Positions 3,937 through 58,887 of a stretch of DNA of 64,000 bases are shown in pieces; within the stretch, counting starts at the first letter, position 1, and the number at the start of each line of letters is the position of its first letter. The notes under the pieces were generated by a model that was not told the origin of the DNA, searched no databases, and worked only from the letters and a program-made list of their open reading frames with translations. The position numbers were made by a program, and so were the translations under genes. The stretch comes from a virus (taxonomy: Duplodnaviria; Caudoviricetes), in IMG/VR virus record IMGVR_UViG_2595698399_000001, positions 8,535 through 72,534 of that record; one strand, given 5' to 3'.

Positions 3937-4668
3937 TTATTTTTTTGATTTTTCAAACTCTCTTCTAAGAAGCTCGGCCATAATATAATTACTATGCGTA
4001 GGTATTCCATCCCTCCAACCTTTTGGAGAAACTCTTGTACCATCGTCCGTGGTTATGAAGAAATATTCATACCCTTTAGGAGCTCCATCTACGGCCTCTA
4101 ACTTGTTTTCCTCTCGACACCATACTTTTTCTAGCGTGAGTTTCCAACTTCTTATTTTCTTATTATTTTTATTATACCAGTCATTACTGGCGTAGTAGTC
4201 AACGAAAGTCTTTCCGTTTACTATGTAGCCTTTTTCCAATGCGTATTGTGTAGCTTCCTCAGGTGTTGGAGGTGTAAACGCTAATGGTGGCTTGAAGTCA
4301 TCTTCTGTGTAGATCTCTAATAGTTCATCCCTATATCGAGAGGCCTTCCCCTCTTCTATAGCCTTACGGATGTTAAGTTTTGATTTAGATAGCGATAAGA
4401 AATGTTCTTTTATTATAAAAACGTTAAATAAACCATCTTTGAAATGAACTAAATACCCACTCTCTTTTAATTCTTCTATACTCTCTTCTATTTCAACTTT
4501 GCCAGTAATCCCTATGTTTAAGTCTGTATTTAAAGACTCGTCTCTCAAAACCAACACTCCTAGAGTGCTTATTTGAGGTTGGGTTACTAAGTAAACATAC
4601 AAGAGTTTAGAATGGGCAGACAACGTAGAAAAATACGCATCCGCCCATAATTTACCTATTGGTACCAT
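3937..4668 (-). CDS. putative replication initiator-like protein
   Basis: N-terminal LWAD..F..LS...KLLYVYL and C-terminal FTPPT.EE...FVDYYASNDW...SWK, typical of phage replication proteins; sits in the replication block. Confidence 0.55.
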   Translation of the reverse strand: MVPIGKLWADAYFSTLSAHSKLLYVYLVTQPQISTLGVLVLRDESLNTDLNIGITGKVEIEESIEELKESGYLVHFKDGLFNVFIIKEHFLSLSKSKLNIRKAIEEGKASRYRDELLEIYTEDDFKPPLAFTPPTPEEATQYALEKGYIVNGKTFVDYYASNDWYNKNNKKIRSWKLTLEKVWCREENKLEAVDGAPKGYEYFFITTDDGTRVSPKGWRDGIPTHSNYIMAELLRREFEKSKK

Positions 4669-4676
4669 CTATATCC

Positions 4677-5417
4677 TTAGAATGGTTTATTGCTCTTTGG
4701 TTTGTCCTCTTTAGCGTCAGTAGCCTTGGCCCTTTTCTTACGCTCAGGCTTAGCCTTTACTTCCTCTTTAGGAGTAGAGTCTTTATCTCCTGCATCCTCA
4801 GAAGGTGCGCCATCTTTAAAGTTTTCTTTGATGAAGTCAACTAAGTGGTCATAGATGAAAGTTTCTTGCTCTGAGTAATCCCACTCTGTAAGACGTCCTT
4901 TTTTCTTTTGGACTGGCTCAGGCATCTCGTCATAAGTAAGGAAGTAATCTACCTTCTCATCATCTTGATACATTTTTACACCGCTTCTAGAGGATTTTCC
5001 GGTCTCTTCTGCAGTCATGTTCCATAGACCAAAGTCCACTTCCTTGGTTAAATCTAAATTACCGATTCTTCTAATGAAATCTTTAGAAGTTCTACTGAAC
5101 ACATCCCCAAGTGAGATAACATATTTGTCATCTACGTCAGTCATGCTAACCTCTACCATATCGCCCCAATCAGCTTCGTTGATAGAAATTCCGGTAATCT
5201 TAGCCTCTAAGTTTCTTAAGATGTAGTAATATACTACCTGACCTTCGTTCTTACCTTTAGTCTTCTTTCTTTCAAGAATATCTTCCGGATTAAGGCCTAA
5301 AGACTCTAACTTTGAGGTTAACTTCGCCTCATCGGTGTTCTCTAATACTAATTCGCTTGCGTAAACTCCTACGTAAGTCGTGTTTGAAGCTCCCGCTCCC
5401 CTTGTGTTAATCGCCAT
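4677..5417 (-). CDS. putative single-stranded DNA-binding protein
   Basis: Charged flexible C-tail ending KPF; replication-gene context. Confidence 0.45.
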   Translation of the reverse strand: MAINTRGAGASNTTYVGVYASELVLENTDEAKLTSKLESLGLNPEDILERKKTKGKNEGQVVYYYILRNLEAKITGISINEADWGDMVEVSMTDVDDKYVISLGDVFSRTSKDFIRRIGNLDLTKEVDFGLWNMTAEETGKSSRSGVKMYQDDEKVDYFLTYDEMPEPVQKKKGRLTEWDYSEQETFIYDHLVDFIKENFKDGAPSEDAGDKDSTPKEEVKAKPERKKRAKATDAKEDKPKSNKPF

Positions 5418-5429
5418 ATTTAATTGAAT

Positions 5430-18268: not shown

Positions 18269-18630
18269 TAGTGGAGGCGGAGGGAATCGAACCCTCGTCC
18301 AGAGCACTTAATCGTTAATGTTTTATACAGCTTTTGCGTAGTATCGTTACACACGGCATTTCTTTAGACTCTTTATGCTAGAGGGGCCAACCATAGTTAT
18401 GATTGAAGCTCCACCAAACTGTTTTGAGAAAACAGATAAAACGGTCAGCTTATACCCCTACTGCTACTTCAAGGTTAAGGATAGCGTTTACCGCTTCCAT
18501 ATTAGCTTCGATCTGTGCGTTTACCGCATTCGTGTTGTTTCCGTTTAAAGAATTTCACCTTAGTTTGTGCAGTTATCTCTCTGCGCTGAACATTAACGAC
18601 TGTTATACCCTGTCAAAACCAGTCGCCCCC
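18269..18630 (-). ncRNA. ssrA: tmRNA
   Basis: 5' GGGGGCGACTGGTTTTGAC; 3' GACGAGGGTTCGATTCCCTCCGCCTCCA with G3.U70 Ala determinant; about 360 nt; tag ORF after TAAAC at 18542-18450. Confidence 0.9.
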
Positions 18631-20067: not shown

Positions 20068-20142
20068 TAGTACTCTCTATAGGATTCGAACCTATGTTTT
20101 TCGGATGAAAACCGAATGTCCTTACCGCTAGACGAAAAGAGC
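20068..20142 (-). tRNA. tRNA-Glu(TTC), copy 1
   Basis: GCTCTTT acceptor, TTCGG-TTTTCAT-CCGAA anticodon arm, ATAGG-TTCGAAT-CCTAT. Confidence 0.85.
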
Positions 20143-22037: not shown

Positions 22038-22112
22038 TAGTACTCTCTATAGGATTCGAACCTATGTTTTTCGGATGAAAACCGAATGTCCTTACCGCTA
22101 GACGAAAAGAGC
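22038..22112 (-). tRNA. tRNA-Glu(TTC), copy 2 (identical to copy 1)
   Basis: Exact repeat of 20068..20142. Confidence 0.85.
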
Positions 22113-23859: not shown

Positions 23860-24345
23860 TTATGCCATTACAGGCTCTAATACTTCTTTTTTAGCTTCTG
23901 CTTTTTTAGCCGCTTCTTTTTTAGCCTTATTAGCTGCCCTTGTTTCAGCCGCTTTTTTAGCTCTATCTTTAGCCGCCTTTATTTGTTCAGGAGTTCTCAC
24001 TTCTGTTGTAGGCTTCGCCACCTCTTTTTTAGCTTCAACTGGCTCTGTGGTCATATCCTTTGCCACCTTCAAAGTTCTGTGTAGTGTTTGCAATACGTAG
24101 TAAGCCGAGTAAGTTCCTAGGTCTTTACCTTTGTACTTTGAAGTACGAACTGTTTTCTTAAATTTCTTGAATGCATCGGAATCGTCTCTTATGAAAGTCA
24201 ATAATTCGATTGCAGGCTCACTTAAGTTTATTTCCTTCTTAAATATTAGTAACATTTTTACACACCCTCCCAAAGTTTTACCTTCTGCTTTAAGTGCCTT
24301 GTTTACATCATTTACATTTTTTTGGTAACTAGATACATTTGCCAT
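23860..24345 (-). CDS. first left-arm gene; Lys/Ala-rich C-terminal tail
   Basis: AKKAAETRAANKAKKEAAKKAEAKKE; followed by hairpin at 23786-23815. Confidence 0.75.
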   Translation of the reverse strand: MANVSSYQKNVNDVNKALKAEGKTLGGCVKMLLIFKKEINLSEPAIELLTFIRDDSDAFKKFKKTVRTSKYKGKDLGTYSAYYVLQTLHRTLKVAKDMTTEPVEAKKEVAKPTTEVRTPEQIKAAKDRAKKAAETRAANKAKKEAAKKAEAKKEVLEPVMA

Positions 24346-25007
24346 AACTTTTAATTTTAAGATTATTATTTTATTTTATTATTTGATTATTTTGCGTTTC
24401 TACGCTTAGGTACTACACAGAATATTCTCTACGTCTGTGTAGCAAGTTGTAATTTCAATTTATTGTTTATACTTCTATTTTGTCAAATTTTACTCGGTTT
24501 GGCTCGTTTTAATATTGCAAAATACTGTTTACATTATTGCCTTTGCTATTGGCTAGTAAAACAGTACATAAAACTTATTAAGGTTTTATCGTAGTGCAAC
24601 ACGAAATTGCTAAAATTATCAATTTCAAAGTGTTTTATTACTTTATAAGCACTCAAGTCGTGCCGGTATAGGAGTGCCAAATATTTTACGGTGGCTTCCA
24701 CTGGTAACATTCTAAGTTACCCTCCTGACAGTTTCTTATATACCGAAGAACTGCCTTTTCGGTTTTATAATTAAAATAGTGTTTATTGTTTGAAATTTAA
24801 GGCTGTGCCTACTTTATACAAATTACCCTTGCGTCCTGTTTTAAACGTACACGGTATTTCACCGTTATTAAAAAATCAAGTATCTCGATTCTTTCTAACT
24901 AATTCGTTAGATTTTAGCAGTTTTAAGGCTGCCACACTTCCGAGGGATTATAAACTACACTAAATTAAAGAACTTATGTTATAATTAGTTACTTACTAAC
25001 TACGCTA

Positions 25008-25074
25008 CAAATGTATTAAAACAATATTGATTAAAAGCTATTTATTCGACGAACTACCTAAAAATCGGTTAAAC
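25008..25074 (-). promoter_or_regulatory. left-arm promoter module 1 with upstream conserved box
   Basis: TACATTTG -7 (25015-25008); box CGACGAACTACCTAAAAATCGGTTAAAC at 25047-25074. Confidence 0.6.
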
Positions 25075-25245
25075 TGTATTTTGTAGACCCTGAGCCAAGT
25101 TTTTAGTAGATTTATACATTAAGATACTACTTACTTACTTTTATTGGCAGCTATACACATATACACCCTATGATAGGTATTTTCGTCACTTGCTTATCAA
25201 TATGCTAAAAGAACGTTTGCAGCTTGTTACTCGTTAACTGCCCTA

Positions 25246-25312
25246 CAAATGTACGGCGGACTTAGAGATATTAAACTAAAAATCCGACGAACTACCTAAA
25301 AAATCGTTAAAC
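25246..25312 (-). promoter_or_regulatory. left-arm promoter module 2 with upstream conserved box
   Basis: TACATTTG -7 (25253-25246); box CGACGAACTACCTAAAAAATCGTTAAAC at 25285-25312; same spacing as module 1. Confidence 0.6.
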
Positions 25313-25490
25313 GGTAAAATTGAGGTTTTTGTGGGCTACTATAGGTATTTGCGCACGTGTGCGGGATACGTTGTAAAAAAGAAAGGTGGTTTTGTGGGTG
25401 GTTTGCGGGGCGGGTTGGTAAGGTCTACCATGTGAATGGCTGCTATTATGATAGTGATATTTTAACAGAGTTAGTTATCTGGTAAGCATG

Positions 25491-25597
25491 TGACAGTATG
25501 GCAGGTTATGGTGTCAGTTTGTCAGGTGTTGTTATGTGGAAGGTAGAGTCTGACAGGGTGGCAGTATGTGGAAGGTATTATATGACAGGGTGGCAGT
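25491..25597. repeat. cluster of TG[AT]CA-N3-TG[GT]CA boxes including a 32-bp tandem repeat
   Basis: Boxes at 25491, 25512, 25551, 25583; TATGTGGAAGGTA-N5-TGACAGGGTGGCAG twice. Confidence 0.7.
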
Positions 25598-26028
25598 AAA
25601 ACAATAATTATTTATAGAATAGCAAGCAGCAAATAAATATCCTAATCAAATAAACTATGTTAAACAGGTATTAAACAGACTTTATTTATAGCAGATTGAC
25701 CCGTATAAAATGATGCGGAGAAAGTTAAGGAGTTTAATGTAAGTGACTGCAAACCAAGTAATTAACAGCCTAGAAAAGCTAAAAACTATACGCAAATTTG
25801 AAAAAATGCGAACCCCACCCCGTTAAAAAAATCGGGTTTGCCATAGCAGCGTGAGGCCCGTGGGTATAGTATGTCTTAAAACAGAAAATGCAAGAGAACT
25901 TCGAAAGTTGGTGCAAAAACATGCATAAAATGGCCCCTAAAGTACGTGACAAACTTTTTACCGAATTATTTACTTGCACCCCTCGAAAGATTTTACTACC
26001 TTTATATCTCATTTAAACAAGGATTATT

Positions 26029-26322
26029 ATGTCAGATAAATTACTAGGAGCGATCGAATTAAAAACTATTAGAATAGATACAGTATTCTACGATTATGAG
26101 GGTCAAGATTTAGGAGACGAAGAAGTAAGGGAAAGTATCCTCGGAGGAGACTATGGAGCAGTTAGTGTTTATGTAAACGACGTCTTAGCATCTTCTTACG
26201 GTGACTACTACCACGAGAAGGGTGATGTAGCAGCAGATGCTTTTGCAAGTGGCCTGTTATTTGCATTAAACGCCCCAGAAGACTTCGAGATACTCTATAC
26301 AAATTCAATAGAGGTGTATTAA
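26029..26322 (+). CDS. acidic hypothetical protein
   Basis: 97 aa, first right-arm ORF. Confidence 0.65.
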   Translation: MSDKLLGAIELKTIRIDTVFYDYEGQDLGDEEVRESILGGDYGAVSVYVNDVLASSYGDYYHEKGDVAADAFASGLLFALNAPEDFEILYTNSIEVY

Positions 26323-26527
26323 TAGTGGTAATTTTATAAAATATGGCACGTACATGGGAATCATTCGGGGAGTTTTGGTCTGAACTATCAAAAGATCAGA
26401 GGACGTACTTAAAAGAGTACATAAATAAGAAAACACGACAGGCCGTCGAACAATATAAAGAAAGTCTCGAATAACAGCTCGAATACTTTTACTATATTTG
26501 CACCTAACACTATAAACATTATAAACT

Positions 26528-26674
26528 ATGATTACATTTTTAGTAGGAGTATTGGCCGGAGCGGCAGGCTTCGCATTAATCTTGAAGAACAACCCTAAAT
26601 TACAAGCATATTTCAATAGTGCTGCAGACGAGTTGGAGCGAAAGATTGAAGAAAAAACCGGAAAAGACATCTAA
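26528..26674 (+). CDS. small membrane-anchored protein (48 aa)
   Basis: MITFLVGVLAGAAGFALILKNNPK...; TATATTTG promoter element upstream. Confidence 0.65.
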   Translation: MITFLVGVLAGAAGFALILKNNPKLQAYFNSAADELERKIEEKTGKDI

Positions 26675-26693
26675 AACAAAAATTATTTACAAG

Positions 26694-26729
26694 TAAGTTT
26701 TTTTATATCAAAAAAAAGTTGTATATTTG
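26694..26729 (+). promoter_or_regulatory. tRNA operon 1 promoter (repeat copy 1 of 3)
   Basis: TAAGTTTTTTTATATCAAAAAAAAGTTGTATATTTG; -7 TATATTTG. Confidence 0.75.
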
Positions 26730-26748
26730 TATCAAAGCAATAAGATCG

Positions 26749-26826
26749 ATGAAAACAATTATGAACATAGCGACAGATATTAGAACCAAGGGAGTGAAAC
26801 TCTTGGGGAGGAGCCGTGTACTATAA
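26749..26826 (+). CDS. putative attenuator leader peptide 1 (MKTIMNIATDIRTKGVKLLGRSRVL)
   Basis: 16 of the first 17 codons specify operon-1 tRNA amino acids; 3' end carries antiterminator strand. Confidence 0.8.
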   Translation: MKTIMNIATDIRTKGVKLLGRSRVL

Positions 26827-26853
26827 TTTCTTTAGATATAAGATGTTTATTAC

Positions 26854-26881
26854 AGCCCTCCCCTAAAAAGGAGGGTTTTTT
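26854..26881 (+). terminator. attenuator terminator 1
   Basis: GCCCTCC-loop-GGAGGGT-TTTTT directly before tRNA-Ala. Confidence 0.8.
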
Positions 26882-26884
26882 ATT

Positions 26885-26962
26885 GGGGCTGCATGAACCA
26901 AGGCAAGGCGACTTTGATTTGCAATCAGAGTGAGATGGGTTCGATACCCATGAGTTCCACAA
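26885..26962 (+). tRNA. tRNA-Ala(TGC)
   Basis: Loop TTTGCAA, G3.U70, ATGGG-TTCGATA-CCCAT. Confidence 0.8.
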
Positions 26963-26987
26963 TAAGATCCCTTACTGACACCAAATT

Positions 26988-27063
26988 GCCCTTGTAGCAA
27001 ACAGGTTGTAGGCAACCGTCTTTTAAACGGTGGGGCTAGGTTCGATTCCTAGCAGGGGCACAT
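26988..27063 (+). tRNA. tRNA-Lys(TTT)
   Basis: ACCGT-CTTTTAA-ACGGT. Confidence 0.85.
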
Positions 27064-27109
27064 AAGTAAATTAGCTTATATAATGGATTATAAGCGAATA
27101 AGGTAATAT

Positions 27110-27185
27110 TGGAGTATAGCTCAGCGGTTAGAGCACTCCCCTGATACGGGAGATGTCGTAGGTTCGAAACCTTCTACTCCAACGA
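27110..27185 (+). tRNA. tRNA-Ile(GAT)
   Basis: CTCCC-CTGATAC-GGGAG. Confidence 0.85.
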
Positions 27186-27270
27186 GGCGGAAGACTACCG
27201 AAAGAAGGAAAAAGGAAAAAAGTTGGACTAAGAGATTGTTTTTACCTCAACTCTATAAAAAGAGGAATTT

Positions 27271-27346
27271 GCGTAAGAGGCCATAGTGGAATGGCGCCTG
27301 CCTTCCAAGTAGGAGATAGCGAGTTCGAACCTCGTCTTACGCTCTT
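27271..27346 (+). tRNA. tRNA-Gly(TCC)
   Basis: CCTGC-CTTCCAA-GTAGG. Confidence 0.85.
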
Positions 27347-27353
27347 TTAAAAT

Positions 27354-27425
27354 TGTGGGTGGTCGTGGTGACCAGAGGGCCTCATAAGTCCTTATAGATG
27401 GGTTCGACTCCCATACCCGCCACAA
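27354..27425 (+). tRNA. tRNA-Met(CAT), short D-arm, unpaired 1:72
   Basis: AGGGC-CTCATAA-GTCCT; ATGGG-TTCGACT-CCCAT. Confidence 0.7.
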
Positions 27426-27497
27426 AAGTCGTTTCTACACTCTTCGGGATAAAGGGTGTTCGTACGACACTCGGCAGTTAATCGACATCTGCCAACT

Positions 27498-27577
27498 GGT
27501 CTAATAAGCGTGTTTGGTAACACGAATTGCACTGTCACTGCTCTAAAACGAGGGTTCGAATCCCTCTTAGACCGCTT
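27498..27577 (+). tRNA. tRNA-Asp(GTC)
   Basis: Loop CTGTCAC; GGTCTAA/TTAGACC-G; anticodon stem partly mismatched. Confidence 0.7.
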
Positions 27578-27584
27578 TAATTAT

Positions 27585-27661
27585 GCACTAATGACTGAAT
27601 AGGAAATGGTACTTCATTTGTAACGAAGATAATTCGGGTTCGACTCCTGATTAGTGCTCAA
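27585..27661 (+). tRNA. tRNA-Thr(TGT)
   Basis: CTTCA-TTTGTAA-CGAAG; GCACTAA/TTAGTGC. Confidence 0.75.
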
Positions 27662-27867
27662 CATACTTAATCCGCCTATCGAGAAGTTTTGAAGCGCATT
27701 AGATTAAGTGTTTTCTGAAAAAGGGGCTTAGCGAATACTAGATATCGTTAACAAAGGCCCCTTTTTATTTATCAGGATAAAAGTATTGTAATGGAGTTTT
27801 GAGTTATGGAAATAAGCTTCTCCACGTTAAAAACAAAAAAGTAGGTGTAGTAATATGCTTACCATAT

Positions 27868-27944
27868 ACCAGATTAGCTCAGCGGTTTAGAGCAGCTCTT
27901 TTACAAGGAGAAGGTCGATAGTTCGAATCTATCATTTGGTACGA
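27868..27944 (+). tRNA. tRNA-Val(TAC)
   Basis: GCTCT-TTTACAA-GGAGA. Confidence 0.8.
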
Positions 27945-28002
27945 CAGTACCTACCACACTTCTAGGAGAACGTCTCAAAGTGTCCAAGGGTAGGTCTTTT
28001 TT

Positions 28003-28076
28003 ACCTCTATAGTTTAAAGGAAGAATACGGCGCTTCTAACGCTATGGTCGGGGTTCGAATCCCTGTAGAGGTTCTT
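28003..28076 (+). tRNA. tRNA-Arg(TCT)
   Basis: CGGCG-CTTCTAA-CGCTA. Confidence 0.8.
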
Positions 28077-28078
28077 AT

Positions 28079-28151
28079 TGGAGTAAGCCTAGGTAGGTTA
28101 GCACGTCTTATATGCGTGTGGAGATGGGTTCGATTCCCTCTATTCCAACTA
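28079..28151 (+). tRNA. tRNA-Ile(TAT), short D-arm
   Basis: CACGT-CTTATAT-GCGTG; acceptor TGGAGTA as in tRNA-Ile(GAT). Confidence 0.7.
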
Positions 28152-28170
28152 TTTATAAAATAAAAAGATA

Positions 28171-28205
28171 TAAGTTTTTTTATATCAAAAAAAGTTGTAT
28201 ATTTA
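28171..28205 (+). promoter_or_regulatory. tRNA operon 2 promoter (repeat copy 2 of 3)
   Basis: TAAGTTTTTTTATATCAAAAAAAGTTGTATATTTA. Confidence 0.75.
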
Positions 28206-28209
28206 CAAT

Positions 28210-28299
28210 ATGAAAACAAACATGACATACAATAATTTCTCTTGGTATTCGAATTGTAGCTTTAGTAGCTATAATGTCGAGAGGTTGTACTTGTCTTAA
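28210..28299 (+). CDS. putative attenuator leader peptide 2 (MKTNMTYNNFSWYSNCSFSSYNVERLYLS)
   Basis: Codons 7-22 use only Y/N/F/S/W/C, the operon-2 amino acids. Confidence 0.8.
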   Translation: MKTNMTYNNFSWYSNCSFSSYNVERLYLS

Positions 28300-28348
28300 A
28301 AATATATTCATTTCTTTTATTAATTTTTGATTATTAATTTTGATTTTT

Positions 28349-28390
28349 ACCCTCTTGGTCTTTCATAGCTAGGAGGGTTTTTTGTTTTTT
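28349..28390 (+). terminator. attenuator terminator 2
   Basis: ACCCTCTTGGT-loop-GCTAGGAGGGT-TTTTTGTTTTTT before tRNA-Tyr. Confidence 0.8.
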
Positions 28391-28396
28391 ATAACT

Positions 28397-28481
28397 TGCA
28401 ACGTAAAGCTAGTGGTTCTAGCAGGCTGTCTGTAAAACAGTTCTTGAGAGGGGAGTGGTTCGATTCCGCACGGTGCAACAA
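28397..28481 (+). tRNA. tRNA-Tyr(GTA)
   Basis: GCTGT-CTGTAAA-ACAGT; long variable arm. Confidence 0.8.
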
Positions 28482-28485
28482 TAAT

Positions 28486-28578
28486 GGAAGAGTAAGCCAA
28501 GTAGGTCTACTGGTCGCTGTCTTGAAAACAGTTGGGGTTTAAAAGCCCGTGTGGGTTCGAGCCCCACTTCTTCCGCAT
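28486..28578 (+). tRNA. tRNA-Ser(TGA)
   Basis: GCTGT-CTTGAAA-ACAGT; long variable arm; G73. Confidence 0.85.
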
Positions 28579-28580
28579 TT

Positions 28581-28668
28581 AGAGAGGTGTCTGAGTGGCT
28601 TAAGGTACTACTTTGCTAAAGTAGTGGGGTTAACGCCTCCGAGGGTTCGAATCCCTTCTTCTCTACAA
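28581..28668 (+). tRNA. tRNA-Ser(GCT)
   Basis: CTACT-TTGCTAA-AGTAG; long variable arm. Confidence 0.85.
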
Positions 28669-28674
28669 ACACAC

Positions 28675-28749
28675 GGCTAGGTAGCTCAGAGGAAGAGCAG
28701 GCGCCTGTTAAGCGTCAGGTCGAGATATCGTAATTCTCCCTAGCCTCTT
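28675..28749 (+). tRNA. tRNA-Asn(GTT)
   Basis: GGCGC-CTGTTAA-GCGTC; atypical T-loop. Confidence 0.8.
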
Positions 28750-28753
28750 TAAT

Positions 28754-28828
28754 ATGTCTCAGCATAAGGTATGCAGTCGGTCTCCAAAACCGTACATGGA
28801 CAAGGTTCGATTCCTTGGGGGCGTGCAA
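28754..28828 (+). tRNA. tRNA-Trp(CCA), short D-arm
   Basis: CGGT-CTCCAAA-ACCG; CAAGG-TTCGATT-CCTTG; G73. Confidence 0.75.
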
Positions 28829-28905
28829 TAAAACAACAGAGCATCCTATAATGTAAAGGAGCCGCCATAAAATCCGAGAGAAGGTCTTGGCTGTTGTTTT
28901 TTAAT

Positions 28906-28981
28906 GCGTTAGAAGCTAACTTGGTAGAAGCACTGGCTTGAAATCCCAGAGGAGTAGGTTCGATTCCTACCTATCGCACTT
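28906..28981 (+). tRNA. tRNA-Phe(GAA)
   Basis: CTGGC-TTGAAAT-CCCAG. Confidence 0.8.
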
Positions 28982-28984
28982 ATA

Positions 28985-29057
28985 TCGGAGATCCTGACGG
29001 AGAAGGGGCCTGTCTGCAAAACTGCGCTATACCGGTTCAATTCCGGTCTCCGATTCT
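28985..29057 (+). tRNA. tRNA-Cys(GCA), divergent anticodon stem
   Basis: Loop CTGCAAA; TCGGAGA/TCTCCGA acceptor with U73. Confidence 0.65.
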
Positions 29058-29106
29058 TATGTTTGTATTTTTCGTACCTTTACTACTTAACGTTAAACAA
29101 ACAACA

Positions 29107-29400
29107 ATGAGAAGAACTACAAGAAAAACTGTGCCAACTAATAAAACTGCGCCTAAGAAAAACGTAACAATCAAATCTGATAAGAGTAGTGTTGCAAGTA
29201 CCAAGGCTAAAAAATACACTGTTAAGACAAGTGGCAAGCTTAAGAAAGAAGAAGAAGCTAGAGGAACTAGGGGTCGTAATGACGCCAATAGATCTGCAGC
29301 CTTTAAGAAAGATGTAGAGAAGGCCGGAGGTATGAGTGCATATACTAAGAAATTAACTGATGCAAAGAAGAGGGTCAAGAAGAATCCAACAAGAATCTAA
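29107..29400 (+). CDS. highly basic small protein
   Basis: MRRTTRKTVPTNK...; K/R-rich; preceded by TACCTTTA -7-like element. Confidence 0.7.
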   Translation: MRRTTRKTVPTNKTAPKKNVTIKSDKSSVASTKAKKYTVKTSGKLKKEEEARGTRGRNDANRSAAFKKDVEKAGGMSAYTKKLTDAKKRVKKNPTRI

Positions 29401-29412
29401 TATAAAACAGTA

Positions 29413-29448
29413 TAAGTTTTTTTATATCAAAAAAAAGTTGTATATTTA
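29413..29448 (+). promoter_or_regulatory. tRNA operon 3 promoter (repeat copy 3 of 3)
   Basis: TAAGTTTTTTTATATCAAAAAAAAGTTGTATATTTA. Confidence 0.75.
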
Positions 29449-29452
29449 CAAT

Positions 29453-29542
29453 ATGAACGTAACGCTATTACATCAAGAGCCCTTAGAACAACTTCGATTA
29501 CCATCGAGGGTGCCTTATTATGGGATTGATGAACTATCATAG
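29453..29542 (+). CDS. putative attenuator leader peptide 3 (MNVTLLHQEPLEQLRLPSRVPYYGIDELS)
   Basis: Codons 5-17 use only L/H/Q/E/P/R(CGA), the operon-3 amino acids. Confidence 0.8.
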   Translation: MNVTLLHQEPLEQLRLPSRVPYYGIDELS

Positions 29543-29565
29543 TTTACAACGCACAATATCCTATT

Positions 29566-29602
29566 AAGAGCCCCTTTGGTATAAACCATTGGGGCTTTTT
29601 TT
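29566..29602 (+). terminator. attenuator terminator 3
   Basis: AAGAGCCCC-TTTGGTATAAACCATT-GGGGCTTTTTTT before tRNA-Pro. Confidence 0.8.
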
Positions 29603-29606
29603 ATTT

Positions 29607-29681
29607 CGAGTAGTGACAAAATTGGCACGTGCCGACCTTGGACGTCGGAGAATGCAGGTTCGATCCCTGCCTACTCGACTT
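29607..29681 (+). tRNA. tRNA-Pro(TGG)
   Basis: CCGAC-CTTGGAC-GTCGG. Confidence 0.85.
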
Positions 29682-29687
29682 TGATTT

Positions 29688-29765
29688 GCTATCGTCTTCT
29701 AAATGGAATAGGAATCCACCCTTTCAAGGTGTGCAATGCGAGTTCAAGTCTCGTCGATAGTACGA
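29688..29765 (+). tRNA. tRNA-Glu(TTC)
   Basis: CACC-CTTTCAA-GGTG. Confidence 0.8.
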
Positions 29766-29808
29766 AGGTTGTTTGCTAGTATCTCCCAACAAAGTAGAAA
29801 CTAGACAT

Positions 29809-29883
29809 TGGAGTATGATGTAACGGTTAGCATGACTGGTTTTGAGCCAGTTCGTCGGGGTTCGAATCCCTGTACTCCATCTT
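29809..29883 (+). tRNA. tRNA-Gln(TTG)
   Basis: ACTGG-TTTTGAG-CCAGT. Confidence 0.85.
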
Positions 29884-29891
29884 ATAAGAGT

Positions 29892-29968
29892 CCTCCGTTG
29901 CGCCAAATTGGAAAGGCGGTCAAGCTGTGAACTTGATTACATGGGTTCGATTCCCATACGGTTGTCCA
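29892..29968 (+). tRNA. tRNA-His(GTG), mismatched acceptor stem
   Basis: TCAAG-CTGTGAA-CTTGA; good D and T arms; acceptor CCTCCGT/ACGGTTG has two mismatches. Confidence 0.65.
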
Positions 29969-30004
29969 ACACGGGGTAGTGTCATAATGTCATACCCCTT
30001 TTAT

Positions 30005-30090
30005 GCCGGAGTGAGTAAAAAAGAGAATGGCAGATCATTGGGTCTTAGAAACCCAGACTTTTGGGGGTTCGAATCCCTCCTCCGGTACTT
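30005..30090 (+). tRNA. tRNA-Leu(TAG)
   Basis: TGGGT-CTTAGAA-ACCCA. Confidence 0.75.
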
Positions 30091-30096
30091 ATTAAT

Positions 30097-30182
30097 GCAT
30101 CCATGGTGGAAAGGGCTATACACTACAGGCTTAAAACCTGTCGCCGAAAGGATTGGGGGTTCGAATCCCTCTGGATGCACTT
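30097..30182 (+). tRNA. tRNA-Leu(TAA)
   Basis: ACAGG-CTTAAAA-CCTGT; long variable arm. Confidence 0.85.
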
Positions 30183-30186
30183 TCAC

Positions 30187-30261
30187 ACTTCTATAGCTTA
30201 ACGGAAAAGCGTTCCGCTACGAACGGATAGATTGGGGGTTCGAATCCCTCTAGAAGTTCTT
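30187..30261 (+). tRNA. tRNA-Arg(ACG)
   Basis: TCCG-CTACGAA-CGGA. Confidence 0.85.
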
Positions 30262-30265
30262 AAAC

Positions 30266-30298
30266 AAAAAAAGCCATCTAATTAAAGGTGGCTTTCTT
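30266..30298. terminator. terminator closing the tRNA array (possibly bidirectional)
   Basis: AAAAAAAGCCATCT-AATTAA-AGGTGGCTTTCTT. Confidence 0.7.
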
Positions 30299-31049
30299 AT
30301 TTTCAACTGGTGGTTGGTGCTAGGCTAATTTGGATTTGCCCCTAATTTTAAAAGATAGGGCATCCTTCACCTTGCTATTTTTTCGTTTATAAACTCGAGC
30401 AGTCGAATCTTCTTTCTTAGAATCCAACTTACTATTCTTCTTACTTTCTATTTTATGGTCTTTATATCTCATATCTTATCTCGGGGCTAGGTTATCTATA
30501 TTCTATTATATCTATATTTATTATCTAATAATATACTTTAGGTAATCCTCTCTGGATATAGCTTCGCTAAAGAGTAAAACCCGTTAGAGTGATACAATTT
30601 AGACGAAAACATATAACTTAATTTGGTTTAGAAGCTTGCGCTCTTTAGTATAAACCTCCTGTTATAATGGGAGCCATAAATGGCGGAGGAATTGCCTCTC
30701 TTACTCCAAACACTCCTCAGTGTTCCTTCGCTCGAATAACTATCTTAGCACGCCTATCCTTGGCCAGAACGATATGTAGCCCGACTAACTACTTCCCTAT
30801 TCGCTAGGTTCTTTATCTTCGGTACTTAGTTTGAGTAAGTCAAACCCTTAGAAACTCTTCGTATGTAATATGTTGTAAATATAGTAAAAATAAAGCGTGT
30901 ATGCAAATATACAAATAATTATTTTATACTTTTTTACCCCCCCCAAATAATTTAATTATGTAAAACGCTAATAGTCAACAACTTATAAAATAAATTAAAA
31001 ATAATTGAAAATAAATTAGGTTTAACAGACTTTATGTACTATCTTTGTA

Positions 31050-31280
31050 ATGAGCAAAACAAAAACAATTTGTATTATGAAAGATTTTATAGGCGTAGGA
31101 TTAAAGATTGGAGATAAGGTAGGATTTGTTGTACCGAGGTACAGAACCCTTAAAGAGGGTACTATATTAAAACTAGGTAATAAGATGGCCACCATAGGAT
31201 ATCCTGATAGCAAAGGAAAAGAAGTTAAGGTTACTAGATACTACTCACAAGTAGTTTTCGTAGGGAGTGCCACTAAGTAA
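31050..31280 (+). CDS. small hypothetical protein
   Basis: MKDFIGVGLKIGDKVGF...; SH3-like composition. Confidence 0.65.
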   Translation: MSKTKTICIMKDFIGVGLKIGDKVGFVVPRYRTLKEGTILKLGNKMATIGYPDSKGKEVKVTRYYSQVVFVGSATK

Positions 31281-31309
31281 TCAAATAAAATAATCAAAAA
31301 TTAATAAAG

Positions 31310-32023
31310 ATGGATAATAAGAAATACGTAGCATACTACAGGGCGTCGACAGAAAGCCAAAGAGATGGAATAGGTCTAGAAGTTCAAAAGAGTTCGGTAG
31401 AGGCGTTTGTTAAGTCTTACGGCGGAACTATAGTAGAAGAGGTTAGCGAGATAATCTCGGGTGGGGCCCAAGTTCGAGAAGGATTTGATAAGGCATTAGA
31501 ACTTTGTAAGAAACACTCTGCGGTATTACTGGTTCACCGCATAGATAGATTATCTAGAGCAGGGTTTATGACCATAGCAAAGCTAGAGGAGAAGGGTGTT
31601 CCTTTTATAGAAGCTGATTCACCTCACGATAGCGAGTTCTCTAAAAACATCAAGTTCTTAATTGCTAAAGAAGAAAAAGATAAAACTCAGAGAAGGGTAA
31701 AAGACGCCTTAGGCCAGATAAAGGCCAATATAGAATCTGACGGATACCATATTACTAAAGCCGGTGATCGAATCACTTCTTTAGGCAACCCTCAGAATCT
31801 CTCTGATATGGCCAGAGAGCGCTCTAAAGTAATTAGAAAGGCAAAGGCCATTGCTAACGAGAACAACCGTAGAGCGTACGCTATGGCATCTAGAATGAAG
31901 TCTAACAAGAGTACTTTAAAGCAGATAGCAGATTACCTTAATAAAAACGGATTTGAAACATCTAAAGGAAATAAATTTTACCCAATACAAGTAAGCAACT
32001 TAATCAAATTATATGAAAACTAA
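31310..32023 (+). CDS. serine recombinase/resolvase
   Basis: YVAYYRASTESQ (catalytic Ser), LLVHRIDRLSR, C-terminal LKQIADYLNKNGF.T.KG. Confidence 0.9.
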   Translation: MDNKKYVAYYRASTESQRDGIGLEVQKSSVEAFVKSYGGTIVEEVSEIISGGAQVREGFDKALELCKKHSAVLLVHRIDRLSRAGFMTIAKLEEKGVPFIEADSPHDSEFSKNIKFLIAKEEKDKTQRRVKDALGQIKANIESDGYHITKAGDRITSLGNPQNLSDMARERSKVIRKAKAIANENNRRAYAMASRMKSNKSTLKQIADYLNKNGFETSKGNKFYPIQVSNLIKLYEN

Positions 32024-49727: not shown

Positions 49728-50528
49728 ATGGCAGCACCAAAAAAAGCAGCTACAAAAGCAGCAACATCAAAAACAGTATTACAAGAAAAAGAATACAGAC
49801 TACTAGATTTCCAACCACTTACTTACACTATTAAGACAGGTAGAGATAACAACTTACTTGTGTGGGATGAGGAATCACAATCTACAAGAGCTATCAAGCA
49901 TTGCCCTAACGAAAAATCAATCTTCGTAGACGAGCAATCTGACAAGGCGGTAGTTAGAGCAATTGTGTTCCTTAATGGACTCTTAAGCACAAAAGCATCA
50001 GAAAAAACAACACAAGACTTTTTAGAAAATCACCCAAAAAGAGGTATCTTATTTGAACTAATCGACGCAGCAGCAGACGCACAAGTGTTCTCTGACATCG
50101 AGGAAATTAAATTAGACGTTAAGCAAGCTATTAGATTAAAAGCTAAAGAAGAAACTGGAATGACTGAACTACGTTTAATCGTATCGGTATTGAACAATGA
50201 CTCTTTAAGCGCATCTAAAATGGAGCCTGCAGAAGTTAAGAACGAGCTTTACAGCTTGGTTGAAACTAACTTAAATAGGTTCGTAGACATGGAGACTGGC
50301 GAGGTTACTGTGTTTGACGACGTAGATATACAAAGAATGGCCCTTGCCCAACACTCATTTGACTCAGGAGTAATCCAAGTAAGTGCAGACGGAAACAAGG
50401 TAATGTGGTCAGATAACAAGAAAACAATTTGCATGATTCCTTCGGGTCAAAACCACTTAGATTTCTTCGCTAAGTACTTAGGTACAGAAGAAGGTATCCA
50501 AGTAGCAAAGGAAATTTCTAAACGATAA
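49728..50528 (+). CDS. conserved protein following the capsid gene
   Basis: 266 aa; NEKSIFVDEQ, IVFLNG, FLENHP. Confidence 0.75.
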   Translation: MAAPKKAATKAATSKTVLQEKEYRLLDFQPLTYTIKTGRDNNLLVWDEESQSTRAIKHCPNEKSIFVDEQSDKAVVRAIVFLNGLLSTKASEKTTQDFLENHPKRGILFELIDAAADAQVFSDIEEIKLDVKQAIRLKAKEETGMTELRLIVSVLNNDSLSASKMEPAEVKNELYSLVETNLNRFVDMETGEVTVFDDVDIQRMALAQHSFDSGVIQVSADGNKVMWSDNKKTICMIPSGQNHLDFFAKYLGTEEGIQVAKEISKR

Positions 50529-50611
50529 AAACAATCACTTACTATTTTAAGACGAGCCCCTTTGGGGCTTTTCTTTTTTCCGTATATTTGTAATACATAA
50601 AAATAGATAAG

Positions 50612-51310
50612 ATGATAAACAAAGTATTCGATCTTTTAAAGACGATCGTAAATAAAGAGGTCAGAGGGAACGTACCTTCTCCTGACGAACTTAACTTAAT
50701 AGCCAAGCAAGTACAATCAGAAATATTCAGAGCCTATTTTGAGGACGAGAATAGAGATAAGATTAAACAGAACAGGGGGGCCACTAGTAGCGGATACTCT
50801 AACTTGGCATTCAACCAAAGACAGAAGATAGACCAATTCTCAGATAAAGCTGCCTTAGTTGTATCAACTGGATCAGACTTCCTTTTACCAGACGACTTAT
50901 ACCAAATAAAGGATAATGGTCTAGACTACAACGGTAAAGTAATTTCTGAGATGGAGGGGCAGAGGTTTTCTTTCGCTAACACGTCTCTAATGAAGCCTAG
51001 CGAAACATTCCCAACATACGAGAGATACGGTAATAAAATATCAGTATCGCCAAACACAATAACATCCGGGGTTACTTGCAGGTATACAAGGATTCCTAAA
51101 GACCCTAAATGGACTTACTCAATAGCCTTTGACAGAGAGTTCTTCAACCCTTCTGCGGACGACTTCCAAGATTTTGAGCTACACGAGTCAGAGTTTTCTA
51201 ACATAGTAGTTAGAATGCTATCTTACTTAGGTATTCACATAAGAGAAGTAGAAGTTACTCAATATGCTGAGAAACTTAAAGAGAAAACAGAAATAAGAGA
51301 CGAACAATAA
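50612..51310 (+). CDS. tail/neck ring (adaptor) protein
   Basis: NKEVRG...P.ELN..AKQVQ...PKDPKW...DFELHESE. Confidence 0.65.
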   Translation: MINKVFDLLKTIVNKEVRGNVPSPDELNLIAKQVQSEIFRAYFEDENRDKIKQNRGATSSGYSNLAFNQRQKIDQFSDKAALVVSTGSDFLLPDDLYQIKDNGLDYNGKVISEMEGQRFSFANTSLMKPSETFPTYERYGNKISVSPNTITSGVTCRYTRIPKDPKWTYSIAFDREFFNPSADDFQDFELHESEFSNIVVRMLSYLGIHIREVEVTQYAEKLKEKTEIRDEQ

Positions 51311-51321
51311 AATAGAGTACA

Positions 51322-52173
51322 ATGGCATTACATAATTTTACAAATTTAGATGAATACTACAGCGACTCTAGCCAGTTCGGTGAGTATCAATATACGACAC
51401 TAGAAGAGATAATAAGTAACTACATGTTCGGAATGTCCGACGATGATTACACTATAAACTCAGATAGAAACAGAGTAGCACTATTCGGTAAGAAAGGGGT
51501 TAGGGAATTATACTTTGACGTAGTTAACGAGGTTATATCTATAGAACTAGATTTAAGTCCGACATTAACAATACCACTTCCACATGACTACATAGCATTT
51601 ACTAGGATTTCATGGGTAGACGACACAGGTAAATTGCACCCTCTTGCAGTAGACAAGAGTAATAACTTATCTCAAGCGTTCTTACAAGCAAACGACTACG
51701 AATTTTTATACGACGTAAACGGAGATATTTTAAAAGGTAGTCACATACAAAACTTACCGGAGAACAGTAAGAGAGTAGACTCGCAGTCTCCTAGCGGAAG
51801 CTCTCCAACTTTCAACTTGGATAGGTCTAAGATGTATAATAACGGTAGCTATAGGATAGACAAAACTAAAGGGGAGATACAATTTTCATCGGCAGTAGAC
51901 GGGAGAACGATAGTTTTAGACTACATAAGCGACGGACTGTTCCAAAGGGATGATAGTGATATAAAAATACATAAGTTCGCTGAGGACGCCTTAGACTCAT
52001 TTATTTACTACAATTTAGTAAAAAGAAATAGGAGCGTACCGGCCAATGAGAAATACAGAGCCGAAAAAGAGTGGTGGAATCTTAGAAGGATCGCCAAAAG
52101 AAGAATAAACCCTGTTAATTACGACAACATTAAGCAAGTTCTTAAAGGTGGGTCAAGATGGATTAAAGATTAA
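51322..52173 (+). CDS. tail/neck ring structural protein
   Basis: LPHDY, LDYISDG, IHKFAE; structural block. Confidence 0.65.
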   Translation: MALHNFTNLDEYYSDSSQFGEYQYTTLEEIISNYMFGMSDDDYTINSDRNRVALFGKKGVRELYFDVVNEVISIELDLSPTLTIPLPHDYIAFTRISWVDDTGKLHPLAVDKSNNLSQAFLQANDYEFLYDVNGDILKGSHIQNLPENSKRVDSQSPSGSSPTFNLDRSKMYNNGSYRIDKTKGEIQFSSAVDGRTIVLDYISDGLFQRDDSDIKIHKFAEDALDSFIYYNLVKRNRSVPANEKYRAEKEWWNLRRIAKRRINPVNYDNIKQVLKGGSRWIKD

Positions 52174-52178
52174 AAACA

Positions 52179-56153: not shown

Positions 56154-56174
56154 ATATTTGTTGTATCTTGTAGT

Positions 56175-56573
56175 ATGGAATTTAAAGTAATACAACACGA
56201 TGCGAAAGATTTTTACGAAGTATACAAAAAATGGTGCAAGGGCCATAATTTCCCTGCAAGAAATGTTGAAGAGTTGGATATCGCCTTCGTGTCTTATCGT
56301 GGCGATACCCCTCTTTATAGCACTTTCATATGGAGGACGCCATCTACATTCTGCGTTCTGGGGTTTCCTGTTAGTAACCCTGATATACCTTACATACATA
56401 GAAAAGGAGCTCTCGGATTTTTGTTCTCCGAAGTATCTAGACAGCTTAAAGAAATGGGCTTTAAGATAATCTGGACTACCTCTGATACAGAGAGAGTTGT
56501 GGAGGGATTGATTGATAGTGGATTCCAAGTAGCGGACACTAAAGTAGACCAATATTACAAAGTACTCTTTTAG
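56175..56573 (+). CDS. GNAT-fold-like small protein
   Basis: Between nozzle and internal proteins; VSNP...RKGALG.L.......K.MGF. Confidence 0.5.
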   Translation: MEFKVIQHDAKDFYEVYKKWCKGHNFPARNVEELDIAFVSYRGDTPLYSTFIWRTPSTFCVLGFPVSNPDIPYIHRKGALGFLFSEVSRQLKEMGFKIIWTTSDTERVVEGLIDSGFQVADTKVDQYYKVLF

Positions 56574-56621
56574 TACATTTGTTTTTTCCGTACTTTTACA
56601 TTAAATAAAAACACATAAAAC

Positions 56622-57224
56622 ATGGGAGTAGGAGCAGCAGCAGCAGGCCTTTCAGCCGTAGGCGGTATAGTTAAGGGTATAAACGGGGCTAAGAGAGCGA
56701 GGAAAGCTCAGAAAGCTATAGATAATTACGAGAGACAAACGTTAGAAAATTCATATAAAGATATGGAAGTCAGTACTTTAGGTGCAGATCTTCAAAGGGA
56801 AGAACTTGCCAGAGCTACGGCAACTAGCGTAGGAGCATTAGCTTCGGGAGGAGTAAGAGGAATTATAGGAGGTGTTGGAGCGGTACAAGCTAACAACGTA
56901 GCCTCTTCTAGAGCAATCGGAGCAGATTTAGACTCGCAACAAAAGAACATAGACCAACTAAGAGCCTCAGATAATTCAGTTATTAGAAACATGACAGAGA
57001 CTAGAGAGCAGCAAGATTTAGCAGGTTTAGGGAATGCCTTAGAAGTTGGTCGTCAAGATGCAGCCTCAGGATTCGGAGACGCTATTCAATCAGTAGGCTC
57101 TATGGGAGGAATATTAGGAGGCGCTAAAGGAGCAACAGCAGCGGTAGGAGGAGGATCTTCTTTCAGTAATCCGTTTGCATCCACAAAAACATTTTTAGAT
57201 AATCACCAAAACCCTTTTAAATAA
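56622..57224 (+). CDS. internal virion (ejection) protein
   Basis: Gly/Ala-rich with amphipathic N-terminus. Confidence 0.6.
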   Translation: MGVGAAAAGLSAVGGIVKGINGAKRARKAQKAIDNYERQTLENSYKDMEVSTLGADLQREELARATATSVGALASGGVRGIIGGVGAVQANNVASSRAIGADLDSQQKNIDQLRASDNSVIRNMTETREQQDLAGLGNALEVGRQDAASGFGDAIQSVGSMGGILGGAKGATAAVGGGSSFSNPFASTKTFLDNHQNPFK

Positions 57225-58873: not shown

Positions 58874-58887
58874 TTTAATATATAGTA

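Follow-up and report, generated by a model that had tools for sequence, protein, structure and literature searches.

The leader peptides of the enterobacterial amino-acid operons comprise the classic trpL, hisL, leuL and pheL as well as thrL, which calls for Thr and Ile, and the ilv leader, which calls for Ile, Val and Leu. In the trp and his leaders, attenuation reads charged tRNA and does not separate a lack of tRNA from a lack of the amino acid. Leader-peptide attenuation by the pheM leader also acts on pheST of E. coli, which encodes phenylalanyl-tRNA synthetase. T-boxes, by comparison, bind one uncharged tRNA directly and without a ribosome, and are characterized by a Stem I specifier and a T-box bulge. 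To our knowledge, the genes regulated by leader-peptide attenuators are in all described cases those of amino-acid biosynthesis enzymes or of an aminoacyl-tRNA synthetase. The general principle of leader-peptide attenuation is described in two earlier publications (PMC1183508, PMC3082878).

The organization of the phage locus described here is most similar to that of the amino-acid operon leaders, above all thr and ilv: a short ORF with regulatory codons lies close to the promoter, an intrinsic terminator is situated before the genes, and an antiterminator is predicted whose formation would depend on the ribosome. The locus is contained in a stretch of 64,000 bases (hereafter the window) of a virus record of 72,534 bp. 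Between positions 26694 and 30295 of the window, three units of like build are found on the plus strand, to which all features given below belong; each of them consists of a 35-nt promoter block, a short ORF beginning with ATG, a G+C-rich hairpin with a T-run, and a cluster of tRNA genes. We interpret the region 26694-26882 as a ribosome-mediated (leader-peptide) transcription attenuator controlling tRNA genes, a reading to which we assign a probability of about 0.8. A first-pass annotation of the sequence had read this region in the same way, and that reading is supported here, inasmuch as a promoter, a tRNA-matched ORF, a terminator, and a competing antiterminator with its 5' arm in the tail of the ORF are all present and mutually fitting. 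It is strengthened most by the two sister units and by 27 units in 18 other phage loci, the leaders of which co-vary with the tRNAs of their own operons. The ORF, its codon match, the two competing predicted helices, their geometry, and the conservation and covariation across phages can be read from the sequence itself.

Despite the general similarity to the amino-acid operon leaders, there are some differences. The structural characteristics of leader-peptide attenuators are found in the phage unit, but it departs from them in the regulated genes, which are tRNAs and not enzymes. The phage leaders sample seven to ten tRNA species, mostly one to three times each (the most repeated are Asn and Ser, which occur up to five or six times in leader 2), whereas the leaders of amino-acid operons repeat one to three amino acids. 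Furthermore, the phage leaders sample isoacceptors separately, are borne by a phage, and are situated in a promoter context of the Bacteroidota type, with an ATG that mostly lies 4-5 nt past the -7 box. A likeness to the 1:2 helix of the trp leader is seen in the folds of units 2 and 3, where the regulatory codons are predicted to pair with the antiterminator arm.

Equally to pheM-pheST, the phage unit would represent leader-peptide attenuation of the translation machinery with feedback by charged tRNA; in pheM-pheST, however, a single amino acid is concerned and the product is a protein, whereas in the phage unit the product is the sensed RNA species, and many of them at once. With T-box riboswitches it would share that the status of tRNA decides between terminator and antiterminator upstream of genes related to translation; unlike these, it possesses neither a Stem I specifier nor a T-box bulge. 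A search of 26000-31000 against Rfam (cmscan, E<=1) returned tRNAs and chance matches only, and neither a leader family (Trp_leader, His_leader, Thr_leader, Leu_leader etc.) nor a T-box or other cis-regulatory family.

Concerning the promoters, the block of unit 1 (26694-26728) is a 35-nt repeat common to units 2 and 3, of which a repeat search found three copies, beginning at 26694, 28171 and 29413. The TAnnTTTG box within these blocks, situated in unit 1 at 26722-26729 and thus running 1 nt past the repeat, is presumably the -7 element of Bacteroidota-type promoters. A 14-nt core motif of the promoter has four matches in the window, compared to 0.27 expected, and none of 100 shuffles reaches this number; on the plus strand of the 72,534-bp record it occurs only three times, at each of the three units. 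In unit 1, the ATG is situated 19 nt past the -7 box and is not preceded by a Shine-Dalgarno sequence; the ATG follows four bases past the box in units 2 and 3, and 4-5 nt past it in most other units. Sister attenuator 2 (28171-28384) begins with the promoter block at 28171-28205 and continues with a leader ORF (28210-28299) and a terminator (28349-28378) followed by a T-run to 28384. The corresponding parts of sister attenuator 3 (29413-29603) are the promoter block at 29413-29447, the leader ORF at 29453-29542, and the terminator at 29569-29596 with a T-run to 29603.

The leader ORF of attenuator 1 (26749-26826) consists of 25 codons and a TAA stop codon, and its codons 1-17 (26749-26799) constitute the regulatory run. 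A recount at these positions reproduced what had been reported in the first-pass annotation: 16 of the 17 codons are read by tRNAs of operon 1, with AAC (Asn) as the sole exception, and the leader holds ATA for the tRNA with the TAT anticodon as well as AGA for the one with the TCT anticodon. Its further claim that all ten tRNAs of operon 1 are sampled stands as far as coverage is concerned (10/10), but two of these ten tRNAs are weaker calls. Over the entire leader, 19 of 25 codons are read by operon-1 tRNAs, versus just 2 and 4 of 25 by the tRNAs of operons 2 and 3, respectively.

The same relation is found in all three units. For leaders 1, 2 and 3, the codons that match the own operon number 19/25, 19/29 and 16/29, the longest unbroken stretches comprise 11, 16 and 13 codons, and 10/10, 7/7 and 7/7 of the own tRNAs are sampled; compared with the operons of the other units, only 2-8 codons match, in runs of 1-3. 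The run in leader 2 comprises 16 consecutive codons that are all taken from Tyr, Asn, Phe, Ser (UCN and AGY), Trp and Cys, and that in leader 3 comprises 13 consecutive codons all taken from Leu (CUN and UUR), His, Gln, Glu, Pro and Arg (CGN). The match extends to the level of isoacceptors: AGA and ATA are used in leader 1 for Arg(tct) and Ile(tat), both UCN and AGY in leader 2 for its two Ser tRNAs, and CGA for Arg(acg) together with CUN and UUR for the two Leu tRNAs in leader 3. Codons from outside the respective group are Lys and Thr at the start of leader 2 and Asn in leader 1. All stop-free windows of equal length in the six frames of the 64-kb window (49,315, 51,527 and 59,206 for leaders 1, 2 and 3) served as a null distribution. 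For leader 1, the 17-codon core of which was delimited post hoc, after inspection of the sequence, 25 of the 49,315 windows of 17 codons reach 16/17 matches, and full coverage of the ten tRNAs in addition is found only in the leader itself. Leaders 2 and 3 are each the sole window, among 51,527 and 59,206, respectively, that attains their own match together with full coverage.

The genes downstream of leader 1 are tRNAs only, up to position 28149. Operon 1 (26886-28149) contains, in this order, an Ala(tgc) candidate, Lys(ttt), Ile(gat), Gly(tcc), Met(cat), Asp(gtc), Thr(tgt), Val(tac), Arg(tct) and Ile(tat), eight of which (Lys, Ile(gat), Gly, Met, Asp, Thr, Val and Arg(tct)) are called by ARAGORN with default settings. 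Ile(tat) (28079-28149) is called by ARAGORN only at a relaxed threshold, and its Rfam score of 23 bits is under the cut-off of 29 bits. The Ala(tgc) candidate (26886-26960) went undetected by ARAGORN at both the default and the relaxed threshold, and a search of 106 bases gave no Rfam tRNA match at E<=10. It is located at the same position as in relatives, aligns to the tRNA-Ala(tgc) of four of them, and exhibits a readable G3:U70 acceptor pair, an anticodon loop with TGC, and a T arm; its D arm is aberrant. Operons 2 (28397-29056) and 3 (29607-30259) contain seven tRNAs each, all of them sampled by leaders 2 and 3, respectively; in operon 3, a Leu(tag) candidate (30006-30085) reaches 20.8 bits with Rfam. 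Two tRNA candidates that ARAGORN does not call were included manually in operons 1 and 3, and the sampling amounts to 9/9 and 6/6 without them.

The predicted intrinsic terminator of unit 1 (26855-26882) consists of a G+C-rich stem of 7 bp (26855-26861 paired with 26870-26876), a loop of 8 nt, and a T-run (26877-26882). Folded alone, its hairpin has an energy of -12.6 kcal/mol; the entry for this unit in the terminator scan gives 8 pairs, 5 of them G-C, and the same scan found 13 sites in 24000-32000, versus 6.3 +/- 3.1 in shuffles. The 5' arm of the putative antiterminator (26805-26820) is G-rich and situated in the last third of the leader ORF, and pairs in the folds with a 3' arm (26851-26863) that overlaps the 5' arm of the terminator (26855-26861). 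This pairing had been proposed in the first-pass annotation, and it is indeed present, with both arms at the positions proposed, in the fold of lowest free energy computed for 26800-26883 (-24.4 kcal/mol, z = -2.07; an equally stable fold is reached by 7 of 200 shuffles). Likewise borne out are the terminator stem with its T-run and the predicted sequestration of the terminator 5' arm by the antiterminator. The G-rich motif of the 5' arm is also found in the type-1 leaders of the phage Panino and of the loci L058 and L007.

Units of this kind are not confined to the window. The Cellulophaga phage Calle_1 is 95.5% identical to it over units 2-3, and its unit-1 leader is identical as far as it was aligned (26690-26842), such that no covariation can be obtained from it. 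In the 146-kb Cellulophaga phage phi4:1, all three tRNA groups have a leader and terminator, and in the 77-kb Maribacter phage Panino two groups do. Phages that differ in genus and in genome size have kept the ORF and its composition. The tRNA arrays of Calle_1, Panino and phi4:1 are the same tRNA clusters, and the respective records annotate the tRNAs; the leaders are annotated there at most as 'hypothetical protein' (PANI_CDS0063 in Panino, Phi4113_075 in phi4:1).

The curated set contains 30 units from 19 phage loci, i.e., the three units of the window and 27 units in 18 others (phi4:1, Panino and IMG/VR contigs), many of which came from pattern scans of IMG/VR and from regions of five further virus records. 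Left out of the counts were L001 (near-identical to the window), L011 (a single tRNA in the fetched flank), L006, L237, L246 and L248 (duplicates), L151 and L171 (close to L147 and L152), L257 (match unclear) and L150 (without ORF), as well as L026, L245, L149/L162, L263 and L268, which belong to the same records as L304, L303, L305, L302 and L301, respectively. When compared with their own operons, the 30 leaders have a mean matched fraction of 0.47, a mean longest run of 7.6 codons, and a mean tRNA coverage of 0.96; permuted pairings of leaders and operons give 0.27, 3.1 and 0.63, and in 20,000 permutations none of the three observed values is attained even once; given the relatedness of the units, this figure is to be read as a count and not as a probability. 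Shifting the frame abolishes most of the match (0.47, 7.6 and 0.96 in frame 0, versus 0.19, 1.8 and 0.49 in frame +1 and 0.19, 1.5 and 0.46 in frame +2), and the longest matched run is situated in frame 0 in 25 of the 30 units. This confinement of the codon match to the frame of the ORF argues for reading by a ribosome.

Where the composition of an operon differs, the leader differs with it. The operon of L302 adds His, Asn, Trp and Arg(acg) to the type-1 tRNAs, and its leader contains the corresponding codons (run of 12, coverage 1.0). In L304, an operon with Pro-Thr-Cys-Phe-Trp-Gln-His-Arg is preceded by a leader with a run of 15 codons for exactly those amino acids, and an operon with Lys-Val-Arg-Asn-Met-Gly-Glu-Asp-Ile-Ala by a leader with a run of 13, while the Leu-Leu-Ser-Ser-Tyr operons of L303 and L304 are preceded by Leu/Ser/Tyr leaders. 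Codons for Glu are found two to three times in each of the five leaders of Pro-Glu-Gln-His-Leu-Leu-Arg operons, and are absent from the five leaders of Pro-Gln-His-Arg-Leu(tag) operons, which are without a tRNA-Glu.

The architecture is similarly constant. The start codon is ATG, with GTG in 2 of the 30 units, and a stop codon closes the frame in all 30. Among 21 units examined for this purpose, the ORF is accompanied by a hairpin with T-run in all cases, and the first tRNA begins 6-24 nt past the hairpin in 20, the exception being unit 1 of the window, where the gap is filled by the uncalled Ala candidate. The tail of the ORF pairs with the 5' arm of its own terminator better than shuffled tails do (p<=0.05) in 14 of the 21 units; the antiterminator duplexes of the remaining 7, among them the close type-1 relatives Panino and L058, are not above shuffles at this threshold. 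The arms co-vary with terminators that are unlike each other: the tails of phi4:1 unit 2, L018, L026 and L149 each rank first among the 21 tails for their own terminator arm.

Concerning the effect of a ribosome on these structures, folding was carried out with a mask that extended from 15 nt upstream to 12 nt downstream of the codon in the A site. In unit 1, the modelled probability of the terminator is at most 0.18 with the A site on codons 1-15 and at least 0.98 from codon 16 to the stop codon. In units 2 and 3, equilibrium folding with the mask yields a terminator probability of 0.93-0.99 at nearly every ribosome position, with lows of 0.55 at codon 13 of unit 2 and of 0.79-0.90 at codons 1-4 of unit 3. 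As the terminator is dominant there at equilibrium, a switch in these units would require kinetic, co-transcriptional control, and given this behaviour the equilibrium masks were superseded by folds of the nascent RNA ending in the terminator loop. In these folds, all 30 units sequester the terminator 5' arm (>=0.5) while the ribosome occupies matched codons, and 28 of the 30 release it (<=0.3) when the ribosome is placed further along; of 29 units, 20 have their switch point -1 to +3 codons from the last matched codon. In 12 of the 30 units, sequestration of the arm persists (>0.4) when the ribosome has reached the stop codon. Altogether, the modelled folds agree, in unit 1 and in 28 of the 30 units, with a selection of the structure by the position of the ribosome.

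From this computational evidence we infer a transcription start, translation of the ORF, termination, and a response to tRNA shortage, which may be combined as follows. Transcription would begin at the repeated promoter block, and a ribosome would translate the 25-codon leader while RNA polymerase advances, with codons 1-17 demanding in turn the ten tRNA species encoded downstream. Should any of these charged tRNAs be scarce, the ribosome would stall within codons 1-15 and leave 26805-26820 free to pair with 26851-26863; the antiterminator thus formed would block the terminator stem, such that polymerase enters the tRNA cluster. With fast decoding, the ribosome would be situated between codon 16 and the stop codon and cover the G-rich stretch, the terminator would form, and transcription would end at about 26882, yielding a short leader RNA. 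As the tRNA put out would be the molecule sensed, the loop would constitute a negative (homeostatic) feedback on tRNA supply for one codon group, and the two sister units would serve the other two codon groups likewise.

It might be argued that a translated leader does sense decoding speed here, but that the signal is amino-acid starvation or general translation capacity, such that the tRNA genes are driven by a sensor of growth state or stress. Attenuators read charged tRNA, so that a lack of tRNA and a lack of amino acid would have the same effect, and the few codons of other groups in the leaders (Lys and Thr in leader 2, Asn in leader 1) would be compatible with this. We consider such a sensor unlikely, since it would require neither that the codons track the isoacceptors of the own operon (AGA versus CGN, CUN versus UUR, UCN along with AGY) nor that they follow the regrouping of tRNAs, and since extra tRNA gives no relief from amino-acid starvation. 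A second possibility likewise starts from a translated ORF with tRNA-matched codons, and assumes that the position of the ribosome sets RNA stability, the processing of the pre-tRNA leader or Rho-type polarity, with the hairpin and T-run acting as a constitutive partial stop or as a stabiliser. The dominance of the terminator at equilibrium in units 2 and 3 at nearly every ribosome position would be in line with it, as would the 7 of 21 antiterminator duplexes that are no better than shuffles and the locus L150, which has a terminator without an ORF and the tRNAs of which must nevertheless be made. It does not account, however, for the complementarity of the ORF tail to the 5' arm of terminators that are unlike each other, nor for the matched codons ending where a stalled ribosome starts to cover the antiterminator arm, and with the first tRNA just 6-24 nt past the hairpin in 20 of 21 units we regard it as quite improbable.

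That the ORF is translated at all would be denied if it were a chance frame within an ordinary promoter-proximal small RNA or terminator region, its match being due to coincidence or base composition. The region is A+T-rich with many short ORFs, and the core was delimited after looking at it; this explanation is nevertheless already contradicted by the counts, i.e., by the uniqueness of the leaders among about 50,000-59,000 windows each, the 0 of 20,000 permutations, and the confinement to frame 0, and also by the persistence of ORF and composition across phage genera and genome sizes, so that we attribute hardly any probability to it. The same low probability applies to a leader RNA that binds tRNAs by codon-anticodon contacts without a ribosome, in the manner of a T-box with many specifiers. 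T-box leaders likewise choose between terminator and antiterminator by tRNA, but neither a T-box nor another cis-regulatory Rfam family was found in the region searched, the triplets are contiguous, in a single frame and bounded by a start and a stop codon in 30 of 30 units, and a segment of about 130 nt is too short to accommodate a Stem I or a T-box bulge.

Several loci deviate from the general pattern. In L150, promoter, terminator and operon are kept, but the ORF is lacking; the leaders of L301 call for amino acids without matching tRNAs in its reduced operons; and the leader in L305 contains six Leu codons, no Leu tRNA being found in its operon. Furthermore, some tRNA clusters of L303, L304 and L305 are without a leader.

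The region is also present in contigs from RNA libraries (SOLiD runs, for which contigs only were used). Terminators 1 and 2 are bridged there by contigs spanning 26776-27201, 26500-27547 and 28187-29412, which fits read-through and, equally, carry-over of DNA. Among the contigs listed, none bridges 29531-29594, and the short contigs of leader 3 are deeper than those downstream, observations that permit no firm reading of termination or of levels because the contigs break at the promoter repeats and have one depth figure each.

On balance, we favour the view that Bacteroidota phages carry closed-loop sensors of tRNA supply, in which each block of tRNAs would be gated by a leader that polls all of its species by isoacceptor. 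The phage might in this way detect the depletion of particular host tRNAs, be it by host shut-off, codon mismatch or anticodon-nuclease defences, and resupply only the block concerned. Such a system would probably be the first attenuator in which the output is the sensed molecule, and a widespread, evolvable module, the leaders being rewritten when tRNAs change block. If such a demand-driven switch exists, which would bear on how phages control their tRNA genes and why they carry them, the phage would gauge the decoding capacity of its host by codon group and answer shortages directly. Leader-peptide attenuation would then reach beyond enzymes to genes of non-coding RNA, with seven to ten tRNA species sampled where one to three amino acids are otherwise called for. 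The leaders would also provide a sequence signature for functional tRNA operons in uncultured phages and a compact part for the synthetic control of tRNA supply, and the switch could be tested directly in a culturable marine phage-host pair.

A full-text search of the openly accessible literature yielded no published account of leader-peptide control of tRNA genes. In the accessible text of the paper on the Calle phages, tRNA is mentioned three times, in the form of counts only, and neither 'attenuat' nor 'leader' occurs (PMC8776804).

Within operon 1, a second hairpin with a T-run is situated between tRNA-Thr and tRNA-Val (about 27721-27770), such that Val, Arg(tct) and Ile(tat) may not be simply co-transcribed with the preceding tRNAs.

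When the 48-aa membrane protein preceding the type-1 leader was used as a probe for the locus, 591 stretches matched, one of which was confirmed (L143) and is without a tRNA. An IMG/VR pattern consisting of the G-rich and the C-rich arm proved too unspecific, with at least 116 loci, 3 of them with tRNAs within 400 nt and one true unit (L058). Most matches to patterns combining promoter and ATG are ordinary genes: among 115 matches in one such scan, 33 have an ORF of at most 45 aa, 10 of these with a tRNA within 330 nt, including one (L257) without a clear match. In another such scan of 24 loci, units of leader and tRNAs were found in L004/L006, L007, L011, L018, L026 and the Calle record itself.

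A promoter and a terminator accompany the Pro-Gln-His-Arg-Leu tRNA operon on one IMG/VR contig (L150, 1240-1500), where the leader ORF is absent. Its place is taken by an unrelated segment of about 60 nt that lacks an ATG, and the promoter is the same as in the leader-bearing units; this locus is a natural loss-of-leader variant.

Directly 5' of the type-1 leader, i.e., the leader ORF preceding a tRNA set like that of operon 1, a gene for a single-pass membrane protein of 40-49 aa across phages is syntenic in four phages (including loci L007 and L058); it is situated at 26528-26674 (plus strand) in the window and at 5269-5418 in locus L002. In the Maribacter phage Panino, L007 and L058, the type-1 leader begins a few bases past the stop codon of this gene and lacks a separate promoter; the gene and the leader of the window are separated by a copy of the promoter block.

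In operon 1, tRNA-Thr and tRNA-Val are separated by a stretch that contains a long hairpin and, after it, a T-run (around 27721-27770). The hairpin had no match in Rfam; together with its T-run, it could serve to terminate transcription inside the operon, mark a processing site or represent some other kind of RNA element. A short stretch preceding it is also present in the Thr-Val spacer of phi4:1 (L144, 5856-6001).

Between operons 2 and 3, the window contains a lysine-rich ORF of 113 aa (29059-29400, plus strand), annotated as a structural protein in Cellulophaga phage Calle_1 (Calle1_30). An RNA-library contig covers 28187-29412, across the region of this ORF, which may share a transcript with operon 2.

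Two stand-alone tRNA-Glu(ttc) genes of identical sequence (20070-20142 and 22040-22112, both minus strand) immediately follow protein-coding genes without a leader ORF, and a phage tmRNA gene is located near them (18271-18630, minus strand). The Glu tRNA of operon 3 is separate from, and additional to, these two.

In large uncultured phages, single tRNA arrays carry inserted ORFs, HNH-endonuclease-like ones among them, between their tRNA genes (L303, 1-485 and 2030-3546; L304, 2250-3430). One tRNA cluster of L303 is preceded by an ORF of the inserted type, where its L304 counterpart possesses a leader. In the L304 array, which belongs to a 107-kb uncultured phage, ARAGORN also predicts a tRNA with a CTA anticodon (4336-4408), labelled Pyl and of the amber-suppressor type.
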